Part shown: positions 8,315-23,965 of the stretch, in pieces
How the letters are laid out: the number at the start of each line of letters is the position of its first letter
Numbering within the stretch: position 1 is the first letter of the stretch
Source: Methanobacteriota archaeon
GTDB lineage: Archaea; Thermoplasmatota; Thermoplasmata; SG8-5; DAIRED01
DNA length: 36,281 nt
Direction of reading: 5' to 3'
NCBI GenBank assembly: GCA_043799545.1
Contig: JAZDNO010000010.1
Coordinates: forward strand, 1-36,281
Notes under the pieces: model-generated
The model's input: only the letters and a program-made list of their open reading frames with translations
Database searches by the model: none
What the model was told of the DNA's origin: nothing
Made by a program: the position numbers and the translations under genes

Positions 8315-8994
8315 TGAGCGCCATCCCCGTTAGGCCCGGGAGGATTGGCCCCGAAGACCGCGTTATGGCAACCATCGCCACAACGGCAGCCTTCTGCTTT
8401 GCCGCTCTAACATGGCTTGTTGTAGTGGGTGAGACGCAGGGATTCGACCATGCGGCGCTTGAAACCGTTTACAACTCGAACACGCCGACGACACTTATGA
8501 TTTTCCGGGCGGTTTCATTCGCTGGCTCCATGTGGGCGATTGCTGTCGTCACATGTTTTGCGGCCCTCTATTTTACTCTGCGAAAGCGCATCCGCACATC
8601 GGCATTCATCCTTGCAAGCGTCTCTGGGGCGTGGCTCCTGAATGAGGTCCTCAAGCTCGCCGTTTCGAGAGCCAGGCCGGAGCTGGGCTCCGATGTCTTC
8701 GCGACGGGATACAGCTACCCTAGCGCCCATACGATGGTCGGGATAAGCCTCTACATAACACTCGCCATAGCGCTTTCACCCCTTGTGGAGTCGCCGACAC
8801 GCAAGGCCGCACTCTGGATGTCCGCGGTGGCGCTGGTAGCGCTCATCGCACTCAGCCGCCCGTTCCTCGGCGCGCACTGGCCGACGGACGTGATGGGCGG
8901 CGCGCTTCTGGGCGCGGCCTGGGTAATATCATTGAGAGAGATCCGGATGAGATACCTGCAACACGAAAAAATTGAAAGCGCCGAAAAGTATTGA
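8314..8994 (+). CDS. PAP2-family (type 2 phosphatidic acid/undecaprenyl-PP-like) phosphatase
   Basis: Three PAP2 motifs: KLAVSRARP, YPSAH, SRPFLGAHWPTD; multi-TM. Alternative GTG start at 8311. Confidence 0.86.
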   Translation: MSAIPVRPGRIGPEDRVMATIATTAAFCFAALTWLVVVGETQGFDHAALETVYNSNTPTTLMIFRAVSFAGSMWAIAVVTCFAALYFTLRKRIRTSAFILASVSGAWLLNEVLKLAVSRARPELGSDVFATGYSYPSAHTMVGISLYITLAIALSPLVESPTRKAALWMSAVALVALIALSRPFLGAHWPTDVMGGALLGAAWVISLREIRMRYLQHEKIESAEKY

Positions 8995-9004
8995 AAAAGA
9001 AAGG
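8993..9004 (-). terminator. Possible archaeal oligo-T terminator for pnp
   Basis: CCTTTCTTTTTC on the minus strand ~20 nt after the pnp stop. Confidence 0.3.
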
Positions 9005-9025
9005 TTTTGCGGTCAGGTGTCCGTT

Positions 9026-11302
9026 TCAACGCCTTTCGCGCCTGTCGCCGCCCCTGCGGTCCCCGCCGCGCCTGTCGCCGCCGCGGCCGCCGCCGCGCCT
9101 GTCCCCGCCCCTGCTCGGAGGCCTGCGCTCGCGCCTCGGCTGCTCGACGTAGCCCTCTGGCTTCGGGAGAAGCTCGCGCGCCGAGACGTCGACCTTGCCG
9201 CGGTCTATGGATATGACCTTCACGCGGACCTTGTCCCCGAGCTTGAGCCTGTCCTCGACGTTCTCGACCCTGGCCCAGTCGATCTCCGAAACATGCAGCA
9301 GGCCGTCCTGGTTCGGCGTCAGCGTGACGAAAGCCCCGAAGCTCATCATCTTTACGACGACTGCCTCCTCGAAGATTTCGCCGATTTCGACGGTGCGCAC
9401 AAGGTTCTTGATTATCGTCTCCGCGGCCTTGGCCTTCTCCGAATCCGTGGAGGTGATTACTACCAAGCCCTCGTCGTTGACGTCAATCTGGACTTCGTAT
9501 TCCTCCGTAATCTTGCGGATGACCTTGCCGCCGGGGCCTATGACGTCGCCTATCTTCTCCGGGTCTATGTGGAAGCTGATTATCCTCGGAGCCCACTTGG
9601 AGAGTTCGGTCCTCGGGCCTGGCAATGAGGCCTCCATCACGTCGAGCACCTCGTTGATGCCCTTGCGCATCTGGACCACTGTCGCCTCGACCATCTCCAT
9701 CGTCAGGCCGCGCGTCTTGGTGTCCATCTGTATGGCCGTGATGCCCTGCCTGGTGGACGTGAACTTGAAGTCCATTCCTCCAGCGCCGTCCTCGAGGTCC
9801 TGCAGGTCGGTGATGACCTTCCACCTCTTGCCATCGCACGCGAGGCCCATCGCCATTCCTGCGACGTGCTTCTTCAGCGGGACGCCGGCGTCCATCAACG
9901 CCAGGGACGAACCGCAGGTCGAGGCCATCGAGGACGAGCCGTTGGAGCCCATGACCTCGCTGACGACACGTATCGTGTACGGGAAGTCGTCGTTCGCCGG
10001 CAAGACCGGCAAAATCGCCTTCTCGGCCAATGCGCCGTGGCCAATCTCGCGCCTGCCAGCGCCCCTAAGCGGCTTGACGTCGCCGACCGAGCACGGCAGG
10101 AAGTTGTAGTGGTGATAGTATGTTTTCGTGTAGTCCGCCTCGCCAGTCTCGACAGTCAGTTTGTCGCCCGGAGAGCCCAGGGTCACGACCGACAGGACCT
10201 GGGTCTCGCCCCTTGTGAATAGTCCAGTCCCGTGCACCCTCGGAAGCACGCCCGTCTCGGCAGTGAGAGGCCTTATCTGGTCGAGCGCGCGCCCGTCAAC
10301 CCTCTGGTCCCTGTCCAGGATTGCTAGCGTCACCTGCTCCTCTATGAAGCCGTAGAAGAAGCTGGATATCAGTTTCTTCACGTGCGATTCTGCCTGCGCG
10401 GCGTCCCTCGTCTTCGTCACAAGCGTCGGGGCGAACTGCGCCACGAGCTTGTCCTCGAGGTCGTGCAGTATGGCCTTGCGTGCGCCCTTGGAGCCCTTTG
10501 GCGTGTTGAACAGGTACTTCTCGAGGTGCGGCATCGCCGCCGCCTTTATCTTCGCAATTGCCGCCAGGTCCTCGGGGGCGTGCTGGCCGCTGAGCTTGAG
10601 CTGGTCGAGCGGGGTTTTGTCAGCGCCGACTTCCTTGCGGACAGTGTCCATGAACGCGGCCACCTGGCCGAGGGCTTCCATCGCCGCCTTGAAGCAGGCC
10701 TTCGTGTCCTTGTCGTCGACCTCCTTCGCGGAGCAGTCGACCATCGTGATGCGGTTTCCGTCGCCCATGACGACGAGGTTCATGTCCGAGAATTCCATCT
10801 CGTCCAGAGTCGGGTTGACTATGAAGTCCCCGTTTATCATCGCTATCCTCGCGCCGGCTATCGGGCCGTCGAAAGGTATGCGCGAGAGGTGCACCGCCGC
10901 GCATGCGGCGACCATCGCCACAACATCCGGCTTGTTCACTCCGTCCAGCGCGAGCGGCATGCATATTATCTGCACATCGTTCTTTATGTTCTGCGGGAAG
11001 AGCGGCCTGAGGCCGCGGTCAATCATCCTGCTCGTCAGGACCGCATCGGTCGAAGGCCTGCCCTCGCGCTTCGAGAACCTCGGGCCCTTTATCTTTCCGG
11101 CCGCGAAGTAGCGCTCCTCCAAATCGACCATCAGGGGGAAGAAGTCCATCCCCTCCCGGCACGTCTGCGACATGCTTGCCGTAGCGAGAACGACCGTCTC
11201 TCCGATCTGCGCGACGACCGAGGCGTCTGCCTGGTTCGCGAACTTTCCTATCTCCAACGTGAGCTTTTTGTCGTGCCACGTCATTTCGAATTTCTGTGTC
11301 AT
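9026..11302 (-). CDS. pnp: Polyribonucleotide nucleotidyltransferase (bacterial-type PNPase: two RNase PH domains, KH, S1)
   Basis: FFPLMVDLEERYFAAGKIKG..KREGRPS, RMIDRGLRPLFP, RVDGR..DQIRP, GLFTRGETQ, RREIGHGALAE, SNGSSSMAS, EDGAGGMDFK, KH (IGDVIGPGGKVIRKI), S1 (FGAFV..DGLLHVSEI). ATG 11302 (MTQKFE). Confidence 0.97.
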   Translation of the reverse strand: MTQKFEMTWHDKKLTLEIGKFANQADASVVAQIGETVVLATASMSQTCREGMDFFPLMVDLEERYFAAGKIKGPRFSKREGRPSTDAVLTSRMIDRGLRPLFPQNIKNDVQIICMPLALDGVNKPDVVAMVAACAAVHLSRIPFDGPIAGARIAMINGDFIVNPTLDEMEFSDMNLVVMGDGNRITMVDCSAKEVDDKDTKACFKAAMEALGQVAAFMDTVRKEVGADKTPLDQLKLSGQHAPEDLAAIAKIKAAAMPHLEKYLFNTPKGSKGARKAILHDLEDKLVAQFAPTLVTKTRDAAQAESHVKKLISSFFYGFIEEQVTLAILDRDQRVDGRALDQIRPLTAETGVLPRVHGTGLFTRGETQVLSVVTLGSPGDKLTVETGEADYTKTYYHHYNFLPCSVGDVKPLRGAGRREIGHGALAEKAILPVLPANDDFPYTIRVVSEVMGSNGSSSMASTCGSSLALMDAGVPLKKHVAGMAMGLACDGKRWKVITDLQDLEDGAGGMDFKFTSTRQGITAIQMDTKTRGLTMEMVEATVVQMRKGINEVLDVMEASLPGPRTELSKWAPRIISFHIDPEKIGDVIGPGGKVIRKITEEYEVQIDVNDEGLVVITSTDSEKAKAAETIIKNLVRTVEIGEIFEEAVVVKMMSFGAFVTLTPNQDGLLHVSEIDWARVENVEDRLKLGDKVRVKVISIDRGKVDVSARELLPKPEGYVEQPRRERRPPSRGGDRRGGGRGGDRRGGDRRGGDRRERR
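9031..9112 (-). repeat. RGGD/RRGG low-complexity C-terminal tail of PNPase
   Basis: Encodes ...RGGDRRGGGRGGDRRGGDRRGGDRRERR; plus-strand near-repeats of CCTGTCGCCGCC. Confidence 0.8.
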
Positions 11303-11315
11303 TTCAACACCGTTT

Positions 11316-11472
11316 CCTTTGCGTATAAACAAGCTGCCTCGGCCTTGCGGGGCGAAATGGACCATTTGCGGTCCGATGAGCCTCAACTTGAATGCGGGCC
11401 CCCTCCCGGGGTCCCCGTTGGCGGTCTCGCCGCCATCGGCATTCCAGCCGTTAATAGCCTGCCTTTTGCGTA
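11316..11472 (-). ncRNA. Structured pnp 5' leader or upstream ncRNA (five hairpins)
   Basis: Hairpins at 11437-11450, 11419-11435, 11395-11417, 11359-11374 and 11336-11353, with purine-rich loops on the pnp sense strand. Bounded by a TACGCAAA(A)GG near-direct repeat. Confidence 0.45.
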
Positions 11473-11582
11473 GTAGGGTAGATTATGGTATATAATAAAG
11501 CTTTTGATTCCCGTATAACATCGTGTAAAAGGTTTTATGGATAGTCCCCTCTGCACCGTTGGCTCGATGCCTGGTGAGTCCT

Positions 11583-14183
11583 ATGAGCACAAAGGAGTCG
11601 TCCGCGAGCGCCACGGCGCTCAAGGGCGCGGCGAAGCTTGATGGTCCCCTCGGTGGCTATTCCCTGAATTCGGAGGGCAAGCCCGCATGTTCCGAGGCCT
11701 GTCCCGCAGGCATCGACGTCAAGGCGTACGTCAATCTCATCGCGGACAAACGCTACGAGGAAGCCGTCGCAGTCATCAGGCGCGCCAATCCGTTCCCCGG
11801 AGTCTGCGGCAGGGTCTGCACCCACCCGTGCGAGGGCGAGTGCCAGAGGGGAGAGTTCGACGACCCCGTTGCCATCAAGGCGCTCAAGCGCTTCGCATCC
11901 GACTACGAGAGGGCGAGGCGGTGCCCGGCCCCTGTGGTTAAGCTTGGCAAGAAAGGAAGGGTGGCGATAATCGGCGCCGGTCCAGCGGGTCTCACTGCCG
12001 CATACGATTTGGCTTTGTCCGGTCACCCCGTCGTTGTTTTCGACTCCGCAAAATATGCCGGCGGCATGCTCGGCTGGGGGATACCCAGCTTCAGGCTGCC
12101 CAGGGAGATCGTCCGCGGGGAGGTCATGCAGATTTCCGACCTCGGCGTGGACATCAGGCTTGGCGAGAAGGTAACCGATCCGTCCGCCTTGCTGAGGAAA
12201 GGCTTCTCGGCCGTCGTCGTCGCCGCCGGATGCATGGTCCCGGTCCCCATAGGCGTCGAGGGAGAGGATTCCGATGGCGTGCTGGACTGCATAGATTTCC
12301 TGAGGGGGGCGAGCGAGGGCGACGTGAAATCGCTGAAAGGGAAGACCGTCGTCGTCGGCGGCGGAAACGCCGCGCTCGACGCCGCCAGGATGGCGCTGCG
12401 TCTCGGCTCGGACGTGACGATAGCGTACAGGCGAACGGAAGCCGAGATGCCGGCGGACAGAGCAGAAATCCAGGAGGCCAAGGAGGAAGGCATCAAATTC
12501 GAGTTCCTGGCCATGCCGAAAAAGGTCGTTGCTTCGGAAGGCAAAGTGACGGGGCTGGTCGTCCAGCGCGCCAAGCTGGGGGAGCCGGATGCAAGCGGGA
12601 GGCGCGCCCCCGTTGGAATACCGGGCAGCGTTTTCAAAATCGACGCGGACTGGATAATAAGGGCTGTGGGTTCGAAGCCCGATTCCAAGCTCCTGGAATC
12701 CGGGGGACTGAAGCTCACACCCACAGGCACGATTGAGGCCGACGAGAATGGAAGAACCTCGGTGAAAGGGGTCTTCGCCGCGGGGGATGTGGTTTTGGGT
12801 CCGGCTACCGTCGTCGAGGCCATAGGCAGCGGCCATGCGGCCGCGGCTGGAGTCGTCGAACATCTGGGCGGGCCTAAAGCAGCTTCCCGCGATGAGTCGC
12901 AAGACCGCGTCTACGTCCTGGAGAAGATGCCAGAGGCCAAGGCTGGTCGGGCGAAACCCCCCAAGGTCCCGGCGCTGGCCCGCAAGTCGAGCTTCGAGGA
13001 AGTCGAGGGCGCGCTCGACGAGCTGAGCGCGGTCGCCGAGGCATCCAGATGCAGGCGCTGCGGGCTCTGCTCCGACTGCGACGTCTGCCTTTCCGGCTGC
13101 CACCACAGGCAGGCGGTCCTGCTCAGCGAGGGAAGCGGCCCCAAATGGGTCAAGGTCCCCCTGAATTTCTCCAGGCGGCTCGTCGAGGACCACGCCACGC
13201 GCGAGGGGTGGAGATTGTCGACCGATGGGAAGGTGGCCGAGGCGAGGCTGGAACCCGTCCAGGCGTTCGTCGATTCCGACCTTTGCATCGCGTGCGGGCT
13301 TTGCGAGGAAGCCTGTGTTTACCGTGCGGTGAGGGTGCGATTCAACAGAAACGACTCGCCGTCCGCCGCAGTGGACCAGGAGGGCTGCAGGGCGTGTGGC
13401 GCTTGCGCCGGAGTCTGCCCGACTGGAGCCGTCTCTATGGGATTCATGGACGATGATAAATTGTTCGTGCGTGCGCGCGAGGCTGCGTCGGAATCCAAGG
13501 GAGGAATAGTCACATTCGGCTGCATCTGGCAGGATTCGGGGCGCCTTGCTTCGAAGCCCGGCGTGGTTCCGGTGATTTGCACGAGGCGCGTCTCACCCGC
13601 GTTCGTGCTCGAAGCGCTCGCGTCGGGTGCTTCCGGGGTCGCGCTTGCTGGCTGCCCCGATGGGGAGTGCCACTACCTGCCCGGGCCGTGGATGGGCGCT
13701 GACATGCCGGACAAGGTCGGCAAGATTCTGGAATCTGTGGGAATCGACAAGCGCCGCGTCAAGTACATCGAATCCTCCGGAGACCATACGAAAGCCGTCA
13801 AACAATTCGCAGCCACTCTGAAGAAGTCCAAGCTCGGGCCGATGCCGGACGCCGCGCGGACGCTGCCTGAAATCCGTGCGCCGCTCGGAAGGGCGATTTC
13901 GCTGGCGCACGTCCTCATGGCTGCCCAGGATTCGAAACCATCCAAGGGCAGGAAGGTCGATTATTTGCTCGCAGCGGGCTGCTCGCCGATTTGCGATTCC
14001 GCTCTCATGGCGCACGGCATCGACGGTTCGGGCGAGTTCCTGGACTCCGTGTCCGTGTTGCTCAAGGCATGCGATATCGATTTCACGCGCAGCCCGAGAG
14101 TCCTCGGCCCGGGGTCGAAGCTGAAGAAATGGGGCTCGACGGACTTTACAAGGATTACGGAAAGGCAGCCATCGAGGCAGTGA
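11583..14183 (+). CDS. Multidomain Fe-S flavoprotein: GltD/SudA/DsrL-like NAD(P)H oxidoreductase + 2x[4Fe-4S] + MvhD-like domain + start of a CCG-like domain
   Basis: CSEACPAG..CGRVCTHPCEGEC (Fer4_20), GAGPAG, GGGNAALD..YRR, CRRCGLCSDCDVC, CIACGLCEEAC, CRACGACAGVCP, FGCIW..VICT..GCPDGECHY. GGTGA ribosome-binding site upstream of ATG 11583. Confidence 0.85.
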   Translation: MSTKESSASATALKGAAKLDGPLGGYSLNSEGKPACSEACPAGIDVKAYVNLIADKRYEEAVAVIRRANPFPGVCGRVCTHPCEGECQRGEFDDPVAIKALKRFASDYERARRCPAPVVKLGKKGRVAIIGAGPAGLTAAYDLALSGHPVVVFDSAKYAGGMLGWGIPSFRLPREIVRGEVMQISDLGVDIRLGEKVTDPSALLRKGFSAVVVAAGCMVPVPIGVEGEDSDGVLDCIDFLRGASEGDVKSLKGKTVVVGGGNAALDAARMALRLGSDVTIAYRRTEAEMPADRAEIQEAKEEGIKFEFLAMPKKVVASEGKVTGLVVQRAKLGEPDASGRRAPVGIPGSVFKIDADWIIRAVGSKPDSKLLESGGLKLTPTGTIEADENGRTSVKGVFAAGDVVLGPATVVEAIGSGHAAAAGVVEHLGGPKAASRDESQDRVYVLEKMPEAKAGRAKPPKVPALARKSSFEEVEGALDELSAVAEASRCRRCGLCSDCDVCLSGCHHRQAVLLSEGSGPKWVKVPLNFSRRLVEDHATREGWRLSTDGKVAEARLEPVQAFVDSDLCIACGLCEEACVYRAVRVRFNRNDSPSAAVDQEGCRACGACAGVCPTGAVSMGFMDDDKLFVRAREAASESKGGIVTFGCIWQDSGRLASKPGVVPVICTRRVSPAFVLEALASGASGVALAGCPDGECHYLPGPWMGADMPDKVGKILESVGIDKRRVKYIESSGDHTKAVKQFAATLKKSKLGPMPDAARTLPEIRAPLGRAISLAHVLMAAQDSKPSKGRKVDYLLAAGCSPICDSALMAHGIDGSGEFLDSVSVLLKACDIDFTRSPRVLGPGSKLKKWGSTDFTRITERQPSRQ

Positions 14184-14683
14184 AATCTTCCAAGGCCAAA
14201 TCGGTCATAGCCATATCGCACGAGGCCCTCTCAAAATTCGAGGGGCAATGGCAGAAGGATTTCGGGAAGCTGGGTTTCGATTTCGTGAGCCTGCCATCGA
14301 TTCTCATGAAGAACTTGCCAGAGGGCGCATTCCGGAGCACGCCCGGGAAGATTGCGTTCCACCCAGCCTGCGGAGGGGGCAATTTCTCAAAGGAATTGCT
14401 CGGCCTGCTGGCCGTTGTCCCCGGCGTCGAGACCGCCGTCATCGAAGCGGGTTGCGGCGAGACCGCCTGGATAGAGCCAAGCGCCGAGAACCGGGCCAAA
14501 GCGCACCGGCTCCTGGCGAAGGCCGAGGCTGCTGGCGCGGGAACCCTCGTCGTCGAATCGCACCAGTGCCTCGCGCACCTCCTCGCGTCGCAAATGGGAT
14601 GGAGGGAGAATGGCTTGGAAGTGACAGACATCTATTCTTTCCTGGCATCGAGGCTCGCGGGGGTGAAGGCAAATGAAGAATGA
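14129..14683 (+). CDS. C-terminal CCG (HdrD/GlpC-like) domain remainder, likely frameshifted continuation of 11583..14183
   Basis: GLDGLYKDYGKAAIEAVK..KSVIAISHEA, FHPAC, AGCG, GAGTLVVESHQCLAHL follow HdrD/GlpC spacing with Cys substitutions. Part of track ORF 13991..14683. Confidence 0.65.
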   Translation: MGLDGLYKDYGKAAIEAVKSSKAKSVIAISHEALSKFEGQWQKDFGKLGFDFVSLPSILMKNLPEGAFRSTPGKIAFHPACGGGNFSKELLGLLAVVPGVETAVIEAGCGETAWIEPSAENRAKAHRLLAKAEAAGAGTLVVESHQCLAHLLASQMGWRENGLEVTDIYSFLASRLAGVKANEE

Positions 14684-17969: not shown

Positions 17970-19277
17970 CTACCTGGGCTTCGGATTCCCGCGCTGCGCC
18001 TTGCCGCGCTTGGCCTTCAGCTCGTCCCTTACCATCTTGATGGCGCACAAGTCGCCGCACATCGAGCAGACCTCGTCCTCGGCCGGCCGCCTGCGCGCCC
18101 TGACCGCCCTGGCGTTCTCCGGGTCCAGCGAGCAGGCGAATTGCCCCTCCCAGTCCAACGCTTTGCGCGCTTTCGCCATGGCGATGTCGCGCTCGAATCC
18201 GATTCCGCGAGTAACGTCCGCCGCATGCGCTGCGATAATGCTGGCAATCGTGCCGACCTTCACATCTTCGACCGTTGGCAGCGAGAGATGCTCCGCCGGT
18301 GTGACGTAGCACAGGAAGTCGGCCCCGGCCATGGCCGCGATTGCACCGCCTATCGCGCCTGTGATGTGGTCGTAGCCAGGGGCGATGTCCGTGACCAGCG
18401 GTCCGAGCACGTAGAACGGCGCTCCCTTGCATATCGACTTCTCAATCGCCACGTTGGCGGCTATCTGGTGCATCGGGACGTGGCCGGGTCCTTCGACCAT
18501 GGCCTGGACTCCCGCCGCGCGTGCGCGCTCCACGCATTCCCCCAGAGTCATGAGCTCGCGAAGCTGCGGCGCGTCGGTGGCGTCGGCCAGGCATCCAGGC
18601 CTGAAGCCGTCGCCGAGGCTCAGCGTGAACTCGTGCTTGCGGGCCAACTCTAGGAGGTAACCGTAGTTGGAATATAGGGGATTCTCCTCCCCATGATGAA
18701 GTATCCACGCGGTGAGGAAAGCCCCTCCGCGGCTCACTACGTCCGTGATTCTCCGCGAGCGGCTCAGAAGCTCCACGCTCTCCCTCGTCACCCCGCAGTG
18801 GACCGTCATGAAGTCAACGCCGTCGCGGGCGTGCTTCTCTATCGCGTTGAACAGCGTGTCCTCGGTCATGTCTACGACGGCGCTCCTCCTGGCGGTCTCC
18901 ATGCCAGCCTGGTATATCGGCACGGTGCCGATGGGGAGGCGCACATCCTTCATGATCCTGCGGCGGATACTGTCAATGTCCCCGCCGGTGCTAAGGTCCA
19001 TTATGGCGTCTGCGCCGAACTCGATGGCGACCCTCGCCTTTCGCATCTCCTCCTTGATGTCGACATGGTCGTTCGAGGTGCCGATGTTGACGTTCACCTT
19101 GACCCGGAGGCCTTCGCCGATGGCCCTCGGCTCGGGGGAATGGACCGGGTTGCTGGGCAGGACTACCCGCCCTTCCCTAATTTGCCTCGCCAGCCTCTCC
19201 GGAGACACCCCTTCGATTTTGGCTGCTTCGGAGACCAGCTTCGGAATCCGCCTTCGGCATTCCCCCATCAGCGTCAT
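17970..19277 (-). CDS. thiC: Phosphomethylpyrimidine synthase ThiC (ThiC/BzaB family)
   Basis: KVNVNIGTS, GADAIMDLSTGGD, GTVPIYQ, SRGG, EGPGHVP, YVTPAEHL, C-terminal CSMCGDLCA Fe-S motif. Start ATG 19277. BzaA/B paralogy cannot be excluded. Confidence 0.88.
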   Translation of the reverse strand: MTLMGECRRRIPKLVSEAAKIEGVSPERLARQIREGRVVLPSNPVHSPEPRAIGEGLRVKVNVNIGTSNDHVDIKEEMRKARVAIEFGADAIMDLSTGGDIDSIRRRIMKDVRLPIGTVPIYQAGMETARRSAVVDMTEDTLFNAIEKHARDGVDFMTVHCGVTRESVELLSRSRRITDVVSRGGAFLTAWILHHGEENPLYSNYGYLLELARKHEFTLSLGDGFRPGCLADATDAPQLRELMTLGECVERARAAGVQAMVEGPGHVPMHQIAANVAIEKSICKGAPFYVLGPLVTDIAPGYDHITGAIGGAIAAMAGADFLCYVTPAEHLSLPTVEDVKVGTIASIIAAHAADVTRGIGFERDIAMAKARKALDWEGQFACSLDPENARAVRARRRPAEDEVCSMCGDLCAIKMVRDELKAKRGKAQRGNPKPR

Positions 19278-19343
19278 GTTGGCGAACCAATGGCAGATGG
19301 GGTAGAAAATAGTATTGTCTTTTCCACCATCGCACTTGCATGT

Positions 19344-21302
19344 ATGATAACTATTACGCAAATATTATATACAAGGATACTTTACGTCGATTTCCTGGGG
19401 GAAAAAAGCACGAGTAAGTCTCAACTCCACAAGCATGGCATCACAAACGGTACTGGCGGGGGGTTCACCAACGGCGCTGGCAATGGGAAAACCAGCGGCC
19501 TCACAAACGGCGCTGGCCGCGGCAGGACGAACGGCATCGGGCGCACGAACGGGCTCGTGAACGGTTCGGGCAAGGGCAGGACAAACGGGTTGACAAACGG
19601 TTCTGGTCGCGGCAGGACGAACGGCGTAGGCCGCACGAACGGGCTCACCAACGGCTCGGGACGCGGCCGCACGAACGGCCTAACAAACGGCATGGGCCGG
19701 ACCAATGGCATTACTAACGGTCTCGGAAGAACAAATGGCATCACGAACGGTCTGGGCCGGACCAATGGGCTAACCAACGGCCTCGGCCGCACAAACGGAA
19801 TGACCAACGGCCTCAATTCATACAGGATGGACGACCGGAACGGTGCAGTCGCGCCCCGAAAGCTCTCGACGATTCTAATCATAGTTTTCATCATCATCAT
19901 GCCAGTGTCCATCGGCTTGCTGATTCAGTCGCAACCGGTCCCCGGACAGATCGTCACGGTGGACGGCAAGTTCAAGGACTGGAACAAGATGACGCGGTAC
20001 GTCGACACAACTATGTACGCAGACCCTGTGCTGGACATAACGGAATTTTCCGTCGCGGTCGAAGGCACGGACTTCTTCGCCTACGTTAAAACGCAGGGCA
20101 ACCTGCTATCCAGGGCGACGATGGACAGGTACTTCGCTTTCATAGACGCCGACGGCAGCCCATCGACGGGATATGCGGCGCTCGGCCTAGGGGCAGAATA
20201 CGTCGTCGAAGCCTACGGCCACAACGGAGGCTCGTGGGGAGTTTCAGCAACTAAGTTCTTCGGCGCAGACCAGTCGAACTGGAGCGCCTTTGGCACTATC
20301 GGCTCAGGCCACGCTGAATCCTCGGACAGCGAGATGGAAATGAAGGCGAGCCTCGACCTCGGGACGGGTCACGAGCTCGACGTTGGTGGCGCGCTCCGCG
20401 TCAGGTTCGCAACCATGACTGGCTCCGCGCTCGCGGACGTTTGCGCCCCCGTCGTAGACGGAAAGAACGGCGCGCTCGTCATAACCCAGACCCCGCAGGA
20501 CGCTGCAGGCATCGTTTCCACCGGCTCGCTCCTCTCCCTCCAGCTCAGGGCCGTGGGCAAAGACGTCGCTGTCAATTCGCTGGCCATCGCTGCGCAGGGA
20601 GTTCCATCGACGACCCAAGCTGGCTTCGCGGCAGGCGAGATTGCCGTGAACTCCGCCCTGACTGTTCAGGTCACGGGGGATGTCGCATCTTTGGCGGACG
20701 GCACGCTGGTCAAGGCCAGTGTTACGTCTGCTGCGGTATCCGGTGCGACCTTCAACGTGAACGGCAACAGCCTTGCCGCGTATGCAAAGTCCGCGCCGGC
20801 GGCAATCGCGATAGACGGCGCATTCGCAGACTGGACAGGTATCCAGAAGACGACGGACGCAGCCTCAGACGTACCGAACCCTAACATCGATATCACCGAA
20901 GCCGCGGCCGCATCACAGTCGAGCAGCTTCCTCGCCTATGTCAAATTCAACGGCGCGGGAACGGCGATGTCGGGCGCCGCAGTCCCCAGCACCAGAACGG
21001 TTCCTGCAGGAGGCGGGGGCGGTGGAGGTGGCGGCGGAACCACCACTATAACGCCTAGAGTCGCTGGCGAGGATGTCACGCGCTTCTACATCGACAGCGT
21101 GGCCGGCGGGAGCGCCATCGGCGGAATCTCTGCGGACTACATGATTGAGCTCAAGGGGCAAGAACGGCCAGATTACATCCAAGCGGGTCTACACATACCC
21201 CGCGAGGACGTTCGTCGCGGACGTTTCGGCAGCGAACGGGGCGGGCGCGATAGAAACCAGCGTCGCGTACAGTTTGATTGGCAACCCGACGGGAACGATT
21301 AG
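19344..21302 (+). CDS. Large cell-surface protein, N-terminal part (TNG repeats, TM helix, two DG-F-DW ectodomain modules, poly-Gly linker); apparently frameshifted at ~21155-21158
   Basis: TNG repeats, TM LSTILIIVFIIIMPVSIGLLI, VTVDGKFKDW and IAIDGAFADW modules. Sensible protein sequence continues in the next frame after ..YMIELKG. Start uncertain: ATG 19344 is the nearest in-frame ATG upstream of the repeats. Confidence 0.7.
   Translation: MITITQILYTRILYVDFLGEKSTSKSQLHKHGITNGTGGGFTNGAGNGKTSGLTNGAGRGRTNGIGRTNGLVNGSGKGRTNGLTNGSGRGRTNGVGRTNGLTNGSGRGRTNGLTNGMGRTNGITNGLGRTNGITNGLGRTNGLTNGLGRTNGMTNGLNSYRMDDRNGAVAPRKLSTILIIVFIIIMPVSIGLLIQSQPVPGQIVTVDGKFKDWNKMTRYVDTTMYADPVLDITEFSVAVEGTDFFAYVKTQGNLLSRATMDRYFAFIDADGSPSTGYAALGLGAEYVVEAYGHNGGSWGVSATKFFGADQSNWSAFGTIGSGHAESSDSEMEMKASLDLGTGHELDVGGALRVRFATMTGSALADVCAPVVDGKNGALVITQTPQDAAGIVSTGSLLSLQLRAVGKDVAVNSLAIAAQGVPSTTQAGFAAGEIAVNSALTVQVTGDVASLADGTLVKASVTSAAVSGATFNVNGNSLAAYAKSAPAAIAIDGAFADWTGIQKTTDAASDVPNPNIDITEAAAASQSSSFLAYVKFNGAGTAMSGAAVPSTRTVPAGGGGGGGGGGTTTITPRVAGEDVTRFYIDSVAGGSAIGGISADYMIELKGQERPDYIQAGLHIPREDVRRGRFGSERGGRDRNQRRVQFDWQPDGND
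19437..19811 (+). repeat. Tandem G(R/L/I)TNG peptide repeats (~20 TNG in 125 aa)
   Basis: GRTNGLTNG units read directly; synonymous codons vary between copies. Confidence 0.9.
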
Positions 21303-22572
21303 GATGTTCGTCGAGACGACGGACTGGGAGAGGCAGGTGGACAGCGCGGCGGCGGTGCAGACGATGAGGGCAATAGGAACTAGGAGCGGAACGGGTGGCT
21401 CCAGCCCAGATGATTTTGGCACTCCGGTTGTCTTCGAATCCGCTACTGCATCCTATATTTCAGCCGCGTTCGACTCTTCTAACAATAAGATCGTGATCGC
21501 TTATCAGGATGTTGGCAATTCAAATTATGGGACAACGGTCGTCGGTACAGTGTCTGGGACCAGCATTTCCTTTGGTGCACCGGTGGTCTTCGAATCTGCT
21601 TCTACGCAAGACATTTCAGCTACCTTCGACTCTTCTAACAATAAAGTCGTAATTGCTTATCAGGATGTTGGCAATTTAAATTACGGAACGACGGTCGTCG
21701 GCACAGTGTCGGGAACCAGCATTTCCTTTGGCACCCCAGTGGTCTTTTATTCTGATACCGCTAACGATATTTCAGCTACCTTCGACTCTTCTAACAACAG
21801 GGTTGTGATAGCTTATCAGGACAGTTCTGCGTACGGAACGGCAATCGTTGGTACAGTGTCGGGGACCAGCATTTCCTTTGGCACGCCGGCGGTCTTCGAA
21901 TCTGATGCCGTCACTTATGTTTCAGCTACGTTCGATTCTCTCAATAACAACGTCGTAATCGCTTATCAAGATTTAAATAATGGCGGGTACGGAACGGCGG
22001 TCGTCGGCACAGTGTCGGGGACCAGCATTTCCTTTGGCACTCCAGCGATCTTCTATTCTGATGCCGTCACTTATGTTTCAGCTACGTTCGACTCTTCAAA
22101 CAACAAGGTCGTAATCGCCTATGCTGATTTTTATTCCATGGAGTTCGGAACAGCGGTCGTCGGTACGGTATCTGGAGCCAGCATTTCCTTTGGCACGCCG
22201 ACATTATTTGAATCTACAACTGCACACGATATTTCAGCTACCTTTGATTCCTTAAACAACAAGGTCGTGATCGCCTATCAGGATGTGCTCACCTCCTATT
22301 ATGGAAAAGCGGTTGTTGGCACGGTATCTGGAACCGGCATATCTTTCGGCACGCCAGAGGTATTCGAGTCAGCTAGTACATCTTATATTTCAGCTGCCTT
22401 CGACTCCTTTAACAAAAAGGTCGTAATCAGTTATTCGGATGGGGGGAATTTAAATTACGGAACTGCTGATGTAATGTACACCCCCGAGTTCCCCACCATC
22501 GCAATCCCTATATTCCTCTGCGCCATACCGTTCATCGTCTTCCGCGCAAAGAGGAGGCCTCGCGTTGAGTAG
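21145..22572 (+). CDS. Cell-surface protein, C-terminal part: seven 50-52-aa repeats (probable beta-propeller) + PEF-CTERM
   Basis: KNGQITSKRVYTY continues the upstream ectodomain. Seven FGTPxVF..S..FDS.NNKVVIAY.D..YGT.VVGTVSGTSIS units. Ends PEFPTIAIPIFLCAIPFIVFRAKRR. Confidence 0.78.
   Translation: MSSRGKNGQITSKRVYTYPARTFVADVSAANGAGAIETSVAYSLIGNPTGTIRMFVETTDWERQVDSAAAVQTMRAIGTRSGTGGSSPDDFGTPVVFESATASYISAAFDSSNNKIVIAYQDVGNSNYGTTVVGTVSGTSISFGAPVVFESASTQDISATFDSSNNKVVIAYQDVGNLNYGTTVVGTVSGTSISFGTPVVFYSDTANDISATFDSSNNRVVIAYQDSSAYGTAIVGTVSGTSISFGTPAVFESDAVTYVSATFDSLNNNVVIAYQDLNNGGYGTAVVGTVSGTSISFGTPAIFYSDAVTYVSATFDSSNNKVVIAYADFYSMEFGTAVVGTVSGASISFGTPTLFESTTAHDISATFDSLNNKVVIAYQDVLTSYYGKAVVGTVSGTGISFGTPEVFESASTSYISAAFDSFNKKVVISYSDGGNLNYGTADVMYTPEFPTIAIPIFLCAIPFIVFRAKRRPRVE
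21415..22468 (+). repeat. Seven tandem ~150-156-bp repeats, lower GC than flanks
   Basis: Recurrent DNA blocks such as ACCAGCATTTCCTTTGG and TTCGACTCTTCTAACAA. Sampled lines are ~40-55% GC versus ~65% upstream. Confidence 0.9.
22483..22572 (+). other. PEF-CTERM protein-sorting signal (archaeosortase C substrate type)
   Basis: PEF tripeptide + hydrophobic helix + basic tail RAKRR at the extreme C-terminus. Confidence 0.75.
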
Positions 22573-23965
22573 AAAGAACAAGAAGAAGTTCAAGCAGCAA
22601 CAGGCTCAGCAGGACGTGCCCGGGGATGTTGCTGAACCCGCTCAGAGCGAGATGCCAGTCGATGATGTGTCCTCAGAGCAGAGCGTCAACGAGGCAGGCG
22701 CGCCCGAAGAGGTTGCCGCTGAAGAGGAAATGTCCGCCGACCAGGCACGCGAAGACGCCAACACCGAGCCAATCGATGACCGTGGAGAGGAATCCGAAGA
22801 AGAGGGTGACGAACCTGAGACTGGCGAGCCTACCGAAGACGATGAACCGGTAACGGAGGGGCCGAAAAACCTAACCGATGCGGAGCCTAAGGGATTTATC
22901 GGCACTTACTGGATGCTAATGTTTGGAGTGCTGTTGGCGACGATGGGCGTCGCCGGCGTCATAATGCTCAGGACCAACTTCATCCAGGTCTACATCATGG
23001 GTGTTAGCAACCCATCGCCCGGGATAGGCGCCAACGAAGCAATGGCCTACGCCGGTTCCATGATTCCTTTCGTCATCGGGCTTTTCACAATCAACTACTG
23101 GGGAAAACATACCGTCATACCAGAAGGCGATGCAACCGCCGTGGAAGCCGAGGCCGAGATAGAGGCAGAAGAGCCTATCGCAGAACCGGAGGACGTCCCG
23201 GAGATTCCGTCTGAATCGGAAATCACTGAAGAACCCCCATCGGAAACCGCGGAATTCGGACACGAGCACCTCCCGCCAGAGCACCTGACAACGGTTCAGA
23301 AAATTAAGCATCTCACGATGGCCTACTCCCAGGGCAAGATAAGCGAGGGGCTCTACAACCAGAACATGGCGCGATTCGAAGAGGAGCTCGAGGCGAAGCC
23401 TGCCAAGGCCGAGCTGCCGACATTCGAGAAGGATTTCGGCCACGAGCACTTGCCACCAGTACACTTGAGCCCGGAGGATAAAATCGACCATCTCTCCAAG
23501 GCATACGCCCAAGGCAGGATTTCCAAAGGCCTCTACGAACGGGACCTCGCCAAATTCGAAGAGGAGCTCAAGAGGGAGCAGCTTCACATGCCCCCTCACC
23601 ACCTCGACCCACAGGAGAAGATTGACCACCTTGAGGACGCATATAGGATGGGGCGCATCTCCAAAGGAACGTACGAAAAGAACCTCGGTGCGTTCAAGAA
23701 GGATATTGAAGCCGAGCAGGCCAAAAAAGCCGCGGAAGAGCCGCCCGAACTGGACATCCCCAGACCCAAGAAGGAAATCGATGCGGAGATTCCTGAATCC
23801 GCATCAAGCGAAGACGACAAGACGCTCATGCAGCTCGATTCGCTCTTGGAGGAGATTGAGAGCGGCAACGACACACCGGAAATGAGGGAGAAGCTCCGCA
23901 AGAAGAAGGAAGAATCCTTCGAGGAGCGCATCCTCCAAGAGATCGAGGACCTAGAGGACCTCTGA
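22565..23965 (+). CDS. Acidic membrane protein with two TM helices and three His-rich SHOCT-like repeats
   Basis: Long E/D/P-rich regions, two hydrophobic segments, three HxxPPxHL..KI.HL..AY..G.IS.G.Y repeats. TTG start overlaps the upstream stop; TGA overlaps the next ATG. Confidence 0.72.
   Translation: MSRKNKKKFKQQQAQQDVPGDVAEPAQSEMPVDDVSSEQSVNEAGAPEEVAAEEEMSADQAREDANTEPIDDRGEESEEEGDEPETGEPTEDDEPVTEGPKNLTDAEPKGFIGTYWMLMFGVLLATMGVAGVIMLRTNFIQVYIMGVSNPSPGIGANEAMAYAGSMIPFVIGLFTINYWGKHTVIPEGDATAVEAEAEIEAEEPIAEPEDVPEIPSESEITEEPPSETAEFGHEHLPPEHLTTVQKIKHLTMAYSQGKISEGLYNQNMARFEEELEAKPAKAELPTFEKDFGHEHLPPVHLSPEDKIDHLSKAYAQGRISKGLYERDLAKFEEELKREQLHMPPHHLDPQEKIDHLEDAYRMGRISKGTYEKNLGAFKKDIEAEQAKKAAEEPPELDIPRPKKEIDAEIPESASSEDDKTLMQLDSLLEEIESGNDTPEMREKLRKKKEESFEERILQEIEDLEDL
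23255..23710 (+). repeat. Three ~46-50-aa His-Pro/SHOCT-like repeats
   Basis: FGHEHLPPEHL..KIKHLTMAYSQGKISEGLY; FGHEHLPPVHL..KIDHLSKAYAQGRISKGLY; LHMPPHHL..KIDHLEDAYRMGRISKGTY. Confidence 0.85.

Follow-up and report, generated by a model that had tools for sequence, protein, structure and literature searches.

How does a polynucleotide phosphorylase (PNPase) of the bacterial type come to be encoded by an archaeon, and what place does it take beside the machinery that archaea normally use? Enzymes of this family form homotrimeric rings that degrade RNA from 3′ to 5′ with phosphate and polymerise nucleoside diphosphates (NDPs) in reverse, and their normal archaeal counterpart is the exosome, which has the same RNase PH fold, the same chemistry and the same ring architecture. 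The gene in question, pnp, lies on contig JAZDNO010000010.1 (C9) of assembly GCA_043799545.1, a metagenome-assembled genome (MAG) of a Methanobacteriota archaeon (Thermoplasmatota; Thermoplasmata; SG8-5; DAIRED01). The window that we analysed is this entire contig of 36,281 bp, one of 31 in a genome of 2.06 Mb that is rated 94% complete with an estimated contamination of 0.85%. In the usual scheme PNPase belongs to bacteria and the exosome to archaea (PMC7144898), reviews from as late as 2024 and 2025 maintain that Archaea lack the enzyme (PMC12430004, PMC12599292), and our literature search found no paper describing an archaeal PNPase. An initial examination of the nucleotide sequence without database searches (the sequence-only reading) had proposed that this gene was acquired by horizontal transfer, has since been ameliorated, and may replace or supplement the exosome. 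We arrive at a modified reading, to which we assign a probability of roughly 0.85: a PNPase that would have entered once from a bacterium resembling those of the candidate phyla radiation (CPR, or Patescibacteria), would have descended mostly vertically since, and would act beside the exosome.

The open frame extends from 9026 to 11386 on the (-) strand, and the conserved ATG at 11302, which is common to the homologues and the same-genus genome, was chosen as its start. It is preceded by a GGTG Shine-Dalgarno sequence at 11308-11311, 6 nt upstream; the stop codon lies at 9026-9028 and the product is 758 aa long. The features of the gene are as follows.

9029..11302 (-): PNPase coding sequence, 758 aa, supported by its TIGR03591 score, PDB matches and ratio of nonsynonymous to synonymous substitution (dN/dS)
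10874..11269 (-): first RNase PH core (PH1), PF01138, 91.8 bits
9878..10279 (-): second, catalytic RNase PH core (PH2), PF01138, 89.8 bits, containing RREIGHG and SNGSSSM
10034..10054 (-): RREIGHG motif of the RNA/phosphate site, residues 417-423, translation verified
9926..9946 (-): SNGSSSM phosphate-binding motif, residues 453-459, translation verified
9764..9808 (-): metal-site motif DLQDLEDGAGGMDFK, which includes D505, D511 and K513 and the signature EDGxGGMDFK
9410..9580 (-): KH domain, PF00013, E 1.5e-10
9194..9388 (-): S1 domain, PF00575, E 2.4e-13
9029..9175 (-): 49-residue Arg/Gly-rich C-terminal tail, with GDRRGG repeats after an LLPKPEGYV linker

The domains follow one another in a single chain in the order RNase PH, RNase PH, KH and S1 (PF01138 twice, PF03725 RNase_PH_C, PF00013 and PF00575); the Pfam model of the all-alpha linker, PF03726, finds no match in the window protein. 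Two equivalog-level NCBIfam models are exceeded by a wide margin (TIGR03591, 809.4 bits against a cut-off of 525; NF008805, 808.3 bits against 471), whereas the protein falls below the cut-offs of the actinobacterial GPSI/PNPase model TIGR02696 (557 bits, cut-off 1106.75) and of the Rrp41 model TIGR02065 (only 93 bits, cut-off 318.7). By sequence comparison the solved PNPases 8zaw and 5yjj align to residues 4-709 with ∼576 bits and E about 1e-172. Set against bacterial Pnp (TIGR03591/NF008805; 8zaw, 5yjj, 4aim, 3cdi, 7ogk), the protein has the same order of PH1, helical linker, PH2, KH and S1, its phosphate-site and metal-site residues are identical, and the match to solved structures is full-length. 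D505, D511 and K513 occupy the positions of the metal-site residues which we take to be D486, D492 and K494 of the E. coli enzyme. These features are not peculiar to the one protein: the 32 archaeal homologues in the alignment all have RR[E/D]IGHG (30 with E, two with D), SNGSSSM, ED and MDFK, and the catalytic motifs are retained in 115-119 of 120 close homologues (SNGSSSM in 119). The description in the sequence-only reading of a full PH1-PH2-KH-S1 PNPase with RREIGHG, SNGSSSM and both metal-binding Asp residues is borne out by Pfam domains and by motifs at verified coordinates. At the level of the sequence the gene is thereby confirmed to encode a genuine, intact PNPase, its family membership and catalytic residues being established; what is unexpected is the domain of life in which this known family occurs, and the system is not of a new kind.

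Comparison with a 94%-identical relative shows that the gene is under purifying selection, with an overall dN/dS of 0.06. The constraint is unevenly spread over the five segments: it is strongest in KH-S1 (0.032) and second-strongest in the PH2 catalytic core (0.037), followed by PH1 (0.059), while the helical linker (0.15) is the most divergent structured part and the C-terminal tail (0.21) is the least constrained part of all.

PNPase is otherwise a bacterial or organellar enzyme and the genome is a MAG in 31 contigs, raising the question as to whether pnp is bacterial contamination, or whether the contig is chimeric or mis-binned. A Pfam and NCBIfam scan of the neighbours shows archaeal-type genes to either side of pnp along the contig, as the sequence-only reading had supposed: a universal archaeal PUA protein (TIGR03684) and an archaeal GlmU (TIGR03992), both above cut-off, together with an RPA-type single-strand-binding protein, AlaXM and a stand-alone (split) GMP synthase subunit. 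An identical succession of genes, MscS, permease/Usp, AlaX, PAP2, pnp, HdrA/MvhD-like, FeS/FAD, DAO, ThiC, recurs in three other assemblies, namely a MAG of the same genus (isolate CTOTU11644) and two metagenome contigs from the Joint Genome Institute (JGI); the PNPases of the JGI contigs, one of which is 113.8 kb long, are 94% identical to that of the window. More distant homologues are found on single-contig archaeal genomes of 3.2-5.2 Mb. The composition of pnp also resembles that of the host, in agreement with what had been said of its GC-rich codon usage. Its GC content is 0.621, its GC content at third codon positions (0.847) stands at the 88th percentile of long open reading frames (ORFs) in the host, and in codon-usage distance it falls inside the range of host genes, 12% of long ORFs being further out. 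Taken together, the flanking synteny in three assemblies, the archaeal hallmark genes, the single-contig homologues and the host-like composition, along with the low contamination estimate, mean that contamination or chimerism is practically excluded.

One explanation for a gene that belongs to its archaeal genome is a recent transfer confined to this genome or its genus. The leader of the gene and its exact neighbourhood are indeed conserved only within the genus. We scanned for TIGR03591 matches at E<=1e-50, a threshold at which 10 of 10 bacterial and none of four archaeal control genomes contain a PNPase, and recovered the enzyme in 18 of the 22 genomes of the order (the window's own genome plus 1/1 in family f1, 11/13 in f3, 5/5 in f4 and 0/2 in f2); the two f3 genomes with no match are only 59% and 77% complete. 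Across the class it is present in 26 of 401 genomes, comprising those of the order and three further families (5/5 in f6, and in f14 and f19), with one additional match that is a fragment at a contig end and no true PNPase in the remaining families of the class (about 370 genomes). A phylum sample adds nine or more families belonging to other classes of the Thermoplasmatota, with PNPase in 34 of 401 genomes (21/24 in f50, plus f48, f66, f67 and f69-f73). Among public data are over 120 protein clusters with identities of 55-94%, several of which NCBI names 'polyribonucleotide nucleotidyltransferase [Thermoplasmata archaeon]', and one of which comes from 'Candidatus Proteinoplasmatales archaeon SG8-5'. 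This distribution makes PNPase a property of a large part of the Thermoplasmatota and not an oddity of one genome. Since orthologues of 60-67% identity, all in one clade, occur in other classes as well as in 18 of the order's 22 genomes, and the best bacterial match is only 52% identical, a recent, local transfer is extremely improbable. The sequence-only reading had held that a PNPase widespread and vertically inherited in the order would speak against a transfer. Such inheritance is what we observe, in 18 of 22 genomes and with families that form clades, and its effect is not to undo the transfer but to move it far back in time.

One member of the archaeal clade carries a bacterial name. Locus L062 (GCA_975970955.1, CDLUMC010000227.1) encodes a PNPase labelled '[Eubacterium] cellulosolvens' at NCBI, and its neighbours are of archaeal type (a thiolase with a DUF35-type partner, DUF973, and a KaiC-like ATPase with DUF7125 and DUF7090); the contig gives the impression of archaeal DNA within a bacterial assembly.

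Where, then, did the archaeal gene come from? Outside the archaeal cluster the best matches are to Candidatus Uhrbacteria (52% identity), the Patescibacteria group (47%) and Sumerlaeota (44%). A FastTree analysis of 169 sequences places all 33 archaeal-type PNPases in one clade with a support of 100, adjoining five sequences that include two named CPR proteins. In an IQ-TREE analysis of 55 rows under LG+C20 the archaeal clade again has a support of 100, on a stem of 0.47; it joins four CPR sequences, among them P0122 (Uhrbacteria) and P0125 (Patescibacteria), with a support of 99, and the joint group lies inside a 34-row clade (support 91) whose five named proteins are from Uhrbacteria, Paceibacterota or Patescibacteria. 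The metal-site motif reads EDGxGGMDFK in the archaeal version and EDHxGDMDFK in most PNPases. The suggestion in the sequence-only reading that this variant is CPR-like proved accurate: EDGxGGMDFK is present in 32 of 33 archaeal and four of five CPR sister sequences but in none of 131 others, which read EDxxG[D/E/H]MDFK, providing an independent rare character that agrees with the placement in the trees. The nearest relatives of the archaeal enzymes are CPR PNPases (for example MBI4250177.1 of Candidatus Uhrbacteria and MBL7058610.1 of Patescibacteria), which share 47-52% identity and the signature with them and from which they are set off by the long stem. As to the descent of the gene after its entry, families f1, f4, f6 and f50 each form a clade with a support of 100 and genera are recovered, which fits vertical inheritance. 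The proposal of a horizontal transfer thus gains from the nesting of the archaeal clade among Patescibacteria PNPases, and that of amelioration from the host-like composition and codon usage. The sequences support an old transfer of pnp from a CPR/Patescibacteria-like bacterium, probably in this direction and probably once.

A number of observations weigh on the other side. The trees are unrooted, and a long archaeal stem can mislead the placement of the clade; moreover, the proteins around it in the CPR-like clade are for the most part metagenome sequences without a name. Within the archaeal clade the deep nodes are not resolved, the order's three families with PNPase are not united in a single clade, and sequences of f71 and f67, from other classes, group with f3 with a support of 96, so that occasional transfer within the phylum is possible. 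Both genomes of family f2, which have no PNPase, are 91-92% complete. Finally, the archaeal signature departs from nearly all other PNPases at two positions (H to G and D to G) that adjoin the metal site.

The missing root also bears on whether the gene passed from Thermoplasmatota to a few CPR bacteria, or reached both from an unsampled third lineage. Such a history would account for the derived motif being common to the archaea and their four CPR sisters and missing in the other CPR-like sequences, and the sister relations in the 19-row clade are not resolved. Against this, the four CPR sisters fall outside the archaeal clade and within the wider CPR-like clade (support 91), PNPase was found in all of the bacterial and none of the archaeal control genomes, and the CPR genes keep bacterial synteny, with the order rpsO-NYN-pnp in two cases (L051, L053) and a position beside dnaA, dnaN, rnpA, rpmH and yidC in another. 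We regard a reverse or third-party transfer as very unlikely. The rpsO-NYN-pnp context is absent from the window, and we also considered whether the CPR NYN partner had been transferred along with pnp; this was rejected, since the genome has a single NYN gene, which is not linked to pnp and is dissimilar to the CPR one (E 0.11).

Transfer from a CPR-like bacterium followed by vertical descent raises the question of what became of the resident exosome. The genome was searched for rrp41, rrp42, rrp4, csl4, RNase R and aRNase J, as the sequence-only reading had suggested. Contig C27 contains the gene cluster SBDS-Rrp4-Rrp41-Rrp42-L37ae, in which Rrp41 scores 354 bits (cut-off 318.7), Rrp4 244 bits (cut-off 200) and Rrp42 271 bits, slightly below its cut-off of 280; Csl4 is encoded on contig C1 (187 bits, cut-off 90). 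Rrp41 retains the EED...ADL catalytic Asp residues seen in solved archaeal Rrp41, and an Rrp41 match is present in all 22 genomes of the order, above cut-off in 21. No RNB/RNase R domain was found in the 94%-complete genome. Its two beta-CASP proteins look like aCPSF1 and aCPSF2, the second seeming aCPSF-like and not RNase J-like. With all parts of the exosome present and the Rrp41 Asp residues kept, of the two alternatives offered earlier the supplementing of the exosome stands and its replacement does not, at least in this genome. The two systems are distinct in build, the exosome being a Rrp41/Rrp42 hexamer with Rrp4/Csl4 caps encoded by a separate gene set and PNPase one polypeptide in which all parts, KH and S1 domains included, are fused. 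An archaeal precedent for a bacterial-type 3′-5′ exoribonuclease is the RNase R of Halobacteria and Methanomicrobiales, a hydrolytic enzyme of the RNB family that is found where the exosome is missing (PMC7144898), in contrast to the present case with no RNB domain and an exosome that is kept.

The situation is different elsewhere in the phylum. Many PNPase-bearing genomes yield only a cross-hit of PNPase itself to the Rrp41 model (E 1e-23 to 1e-29), including genomes of 93-97% completeness in f50, f66, f67 and f70 (e.g. G417, G427, G442, G452, G462), whereas other PNPase-bearing lineages keep a true Rrp41. That no true Rrp41 was found in several PNPase-bearing lineages fits a PNPase that is able to cover the job of the exosome.

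In the order itself, the coexistence throughout of PNPase with a complete, apparently active exosome allows another view, in which the exosome performs the 3′-5′ decay and PNPase owes its retention to a function different from bulk phosphorolysis, such as RNA tailing, an RNA-binding scaffold via the Arg-rich tail, or nucleotide or DNA-repair chemistry. The altered residues beside the metal site in the archaeal clade would be in keeping with this, as would the tail, which distinguishes the archaeal copies from bacterial Pnp. Every archaeal homologue examined has 39-116 aa beyond S1, and in 17 of 33 this extension is Arg/Gly-rich (R+G >40%); one tail of 116 aa carries a second S1 domain instead. 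Two points tell against such a role. All catalytic and phosphate-binding residues are kept, with the PH2 core and KH-S1 under the tight constraint described above, and lineages in which no true Rrp41 was found nevertheless possess PNPase. A role apart from phosphorolytic decay thus appears unlikely, and we retain that of a second phosphorolytic enzyme.

Some further details of the tails may be recorded here. The long archaeal PNPase whose tail was read, P0007 (825 aa), has its second S1 domain after a basic linker, and P0006, P0008-P0010 and P0012 (820-840 aa) show the same extra OB-fold Pfam match (PF24685) and may also have a second S1. The LLPKPEGYV linker of the window protein resembles one in the CPR sister P0124, PEGYVE, and some CPR PNPases share basic tails.

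The setting of the gene also differs from that of bacterial Pnp, in that the host is archaeal, there is no rpsO-pnp operon, and an archaeal-type promoter with a leader of ∼160 nt is predicted.

11303..11504 (-): pnp upstream region, with a BRE/TATA-like sequence (B recognition element and TATA box) AAAGCTTTATTATATA at 11489-11504, a GC-rich leader of ∼160 nt, and GGTG at 11308-11311

The box lies ∼185 nt upstream of the ATG, and from its position the transcript would begin with a leader of ∼160 nt. The same-genus genome shares both box and leader in conserved form, and in comparison with it two leader hairpins vary on both sides of the stem (GGCGG/CCGCC to GATGG/CCATC). The leader has no Rfam match, its single-sequence fold is not better than those of shuffled sequences (z -0.74), and no sequence match to it was found among 28 loci outside the genus. 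We found no operon partner or neighbour that is conserved across the archaeal families, and no S15 (rpsO) partner at pnp. From its sequence context pnp is now best described as a stand-alone gene with its own predicted archaeal-type promoter. An RNase III gene was not found in the 94%-complete genome, which makes autoregulation of pnp in the E. coli style unlikely.

Three other regions of the window deserve mention. The HdrA/MvhD-like NAD(P)-binding Fe-S flavoprotein gene beside pnp (11559-14683, + strand) is divided over two frames near 14108-14147; in close relatives (L059) it is a single gene of 1033 aa, which indicates a frameshift or an assembly error in the window. On the other side of pnp, a 113-aa HTH_3 gene separates it from PAP2 in close relatives (10363-10704 in L059). 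The window has 31 bases at this place (8994-9026), and the gene has no match elsewhere in the genome. Further along, three successive large ORFs of 869, 475 and 466 aa (18693-23965, + strand) match no Pfam or NCBIfam family above threshold.

How might such an enzyme work in its host? By analogy with its family, the PNPase of this archaeon would be enzymatically active and would assemble as a homotrimeric ring. The 3′ ends of RNA would pass the KH and S1 domains on their way into the active site of PH2, to be shortened there with inorganic phosphate, releasing NDPs, and in the reverse reaction the enzyme could add heteropolymeric tails. The gene would have entered the ancestor of a large Thermoplasmatota group in a single event from a CPR/Patescibacteria-like bacterium, and in the course of mostly vertical descent would have acquired the composition of its host and a basic, Arg-rich tail. 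Within this genome, and within its order, it would work beside the complete and apparently active exosome of Rrp41, Rrp42, Rrp4 and Csl4, so that the cell would have two phosphorolytic 3′-5′ RNA machines. More tentatively, and as a possibility that we think somewhat doubtful, the two machines of different origin may have divided the work between them, for example with bulk mRNA decay and tailing falling to PNPase and rRNA and tRNA processing to the exosome. Redundancy could then have let relatives lose the exosome, the redundant stage being the intermediate before its loss in related Thermoplasmatota lineages. Should this be the case, a donor from the CPR would suggest that Patescibacteria and these archaea were physically associated in ancient times.

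Judged from sequence conservation, a large group of uncultured Thermoplasmatota has in its core gene set a PNPase that is under selection and apparently active, a finding that corrects the textbook statement that PNPase is absent from archaea. It offers what appears to be a clean case of a housekeeping gene moved from CPR bacteria into archaea. It also provides a natural series of lineages with the exosome only, with both machines and with PNPase only, in which one may ask whether the two are interchangeable, what roles they take when both are present, and how a core RNA-decay system comes to be replaced.

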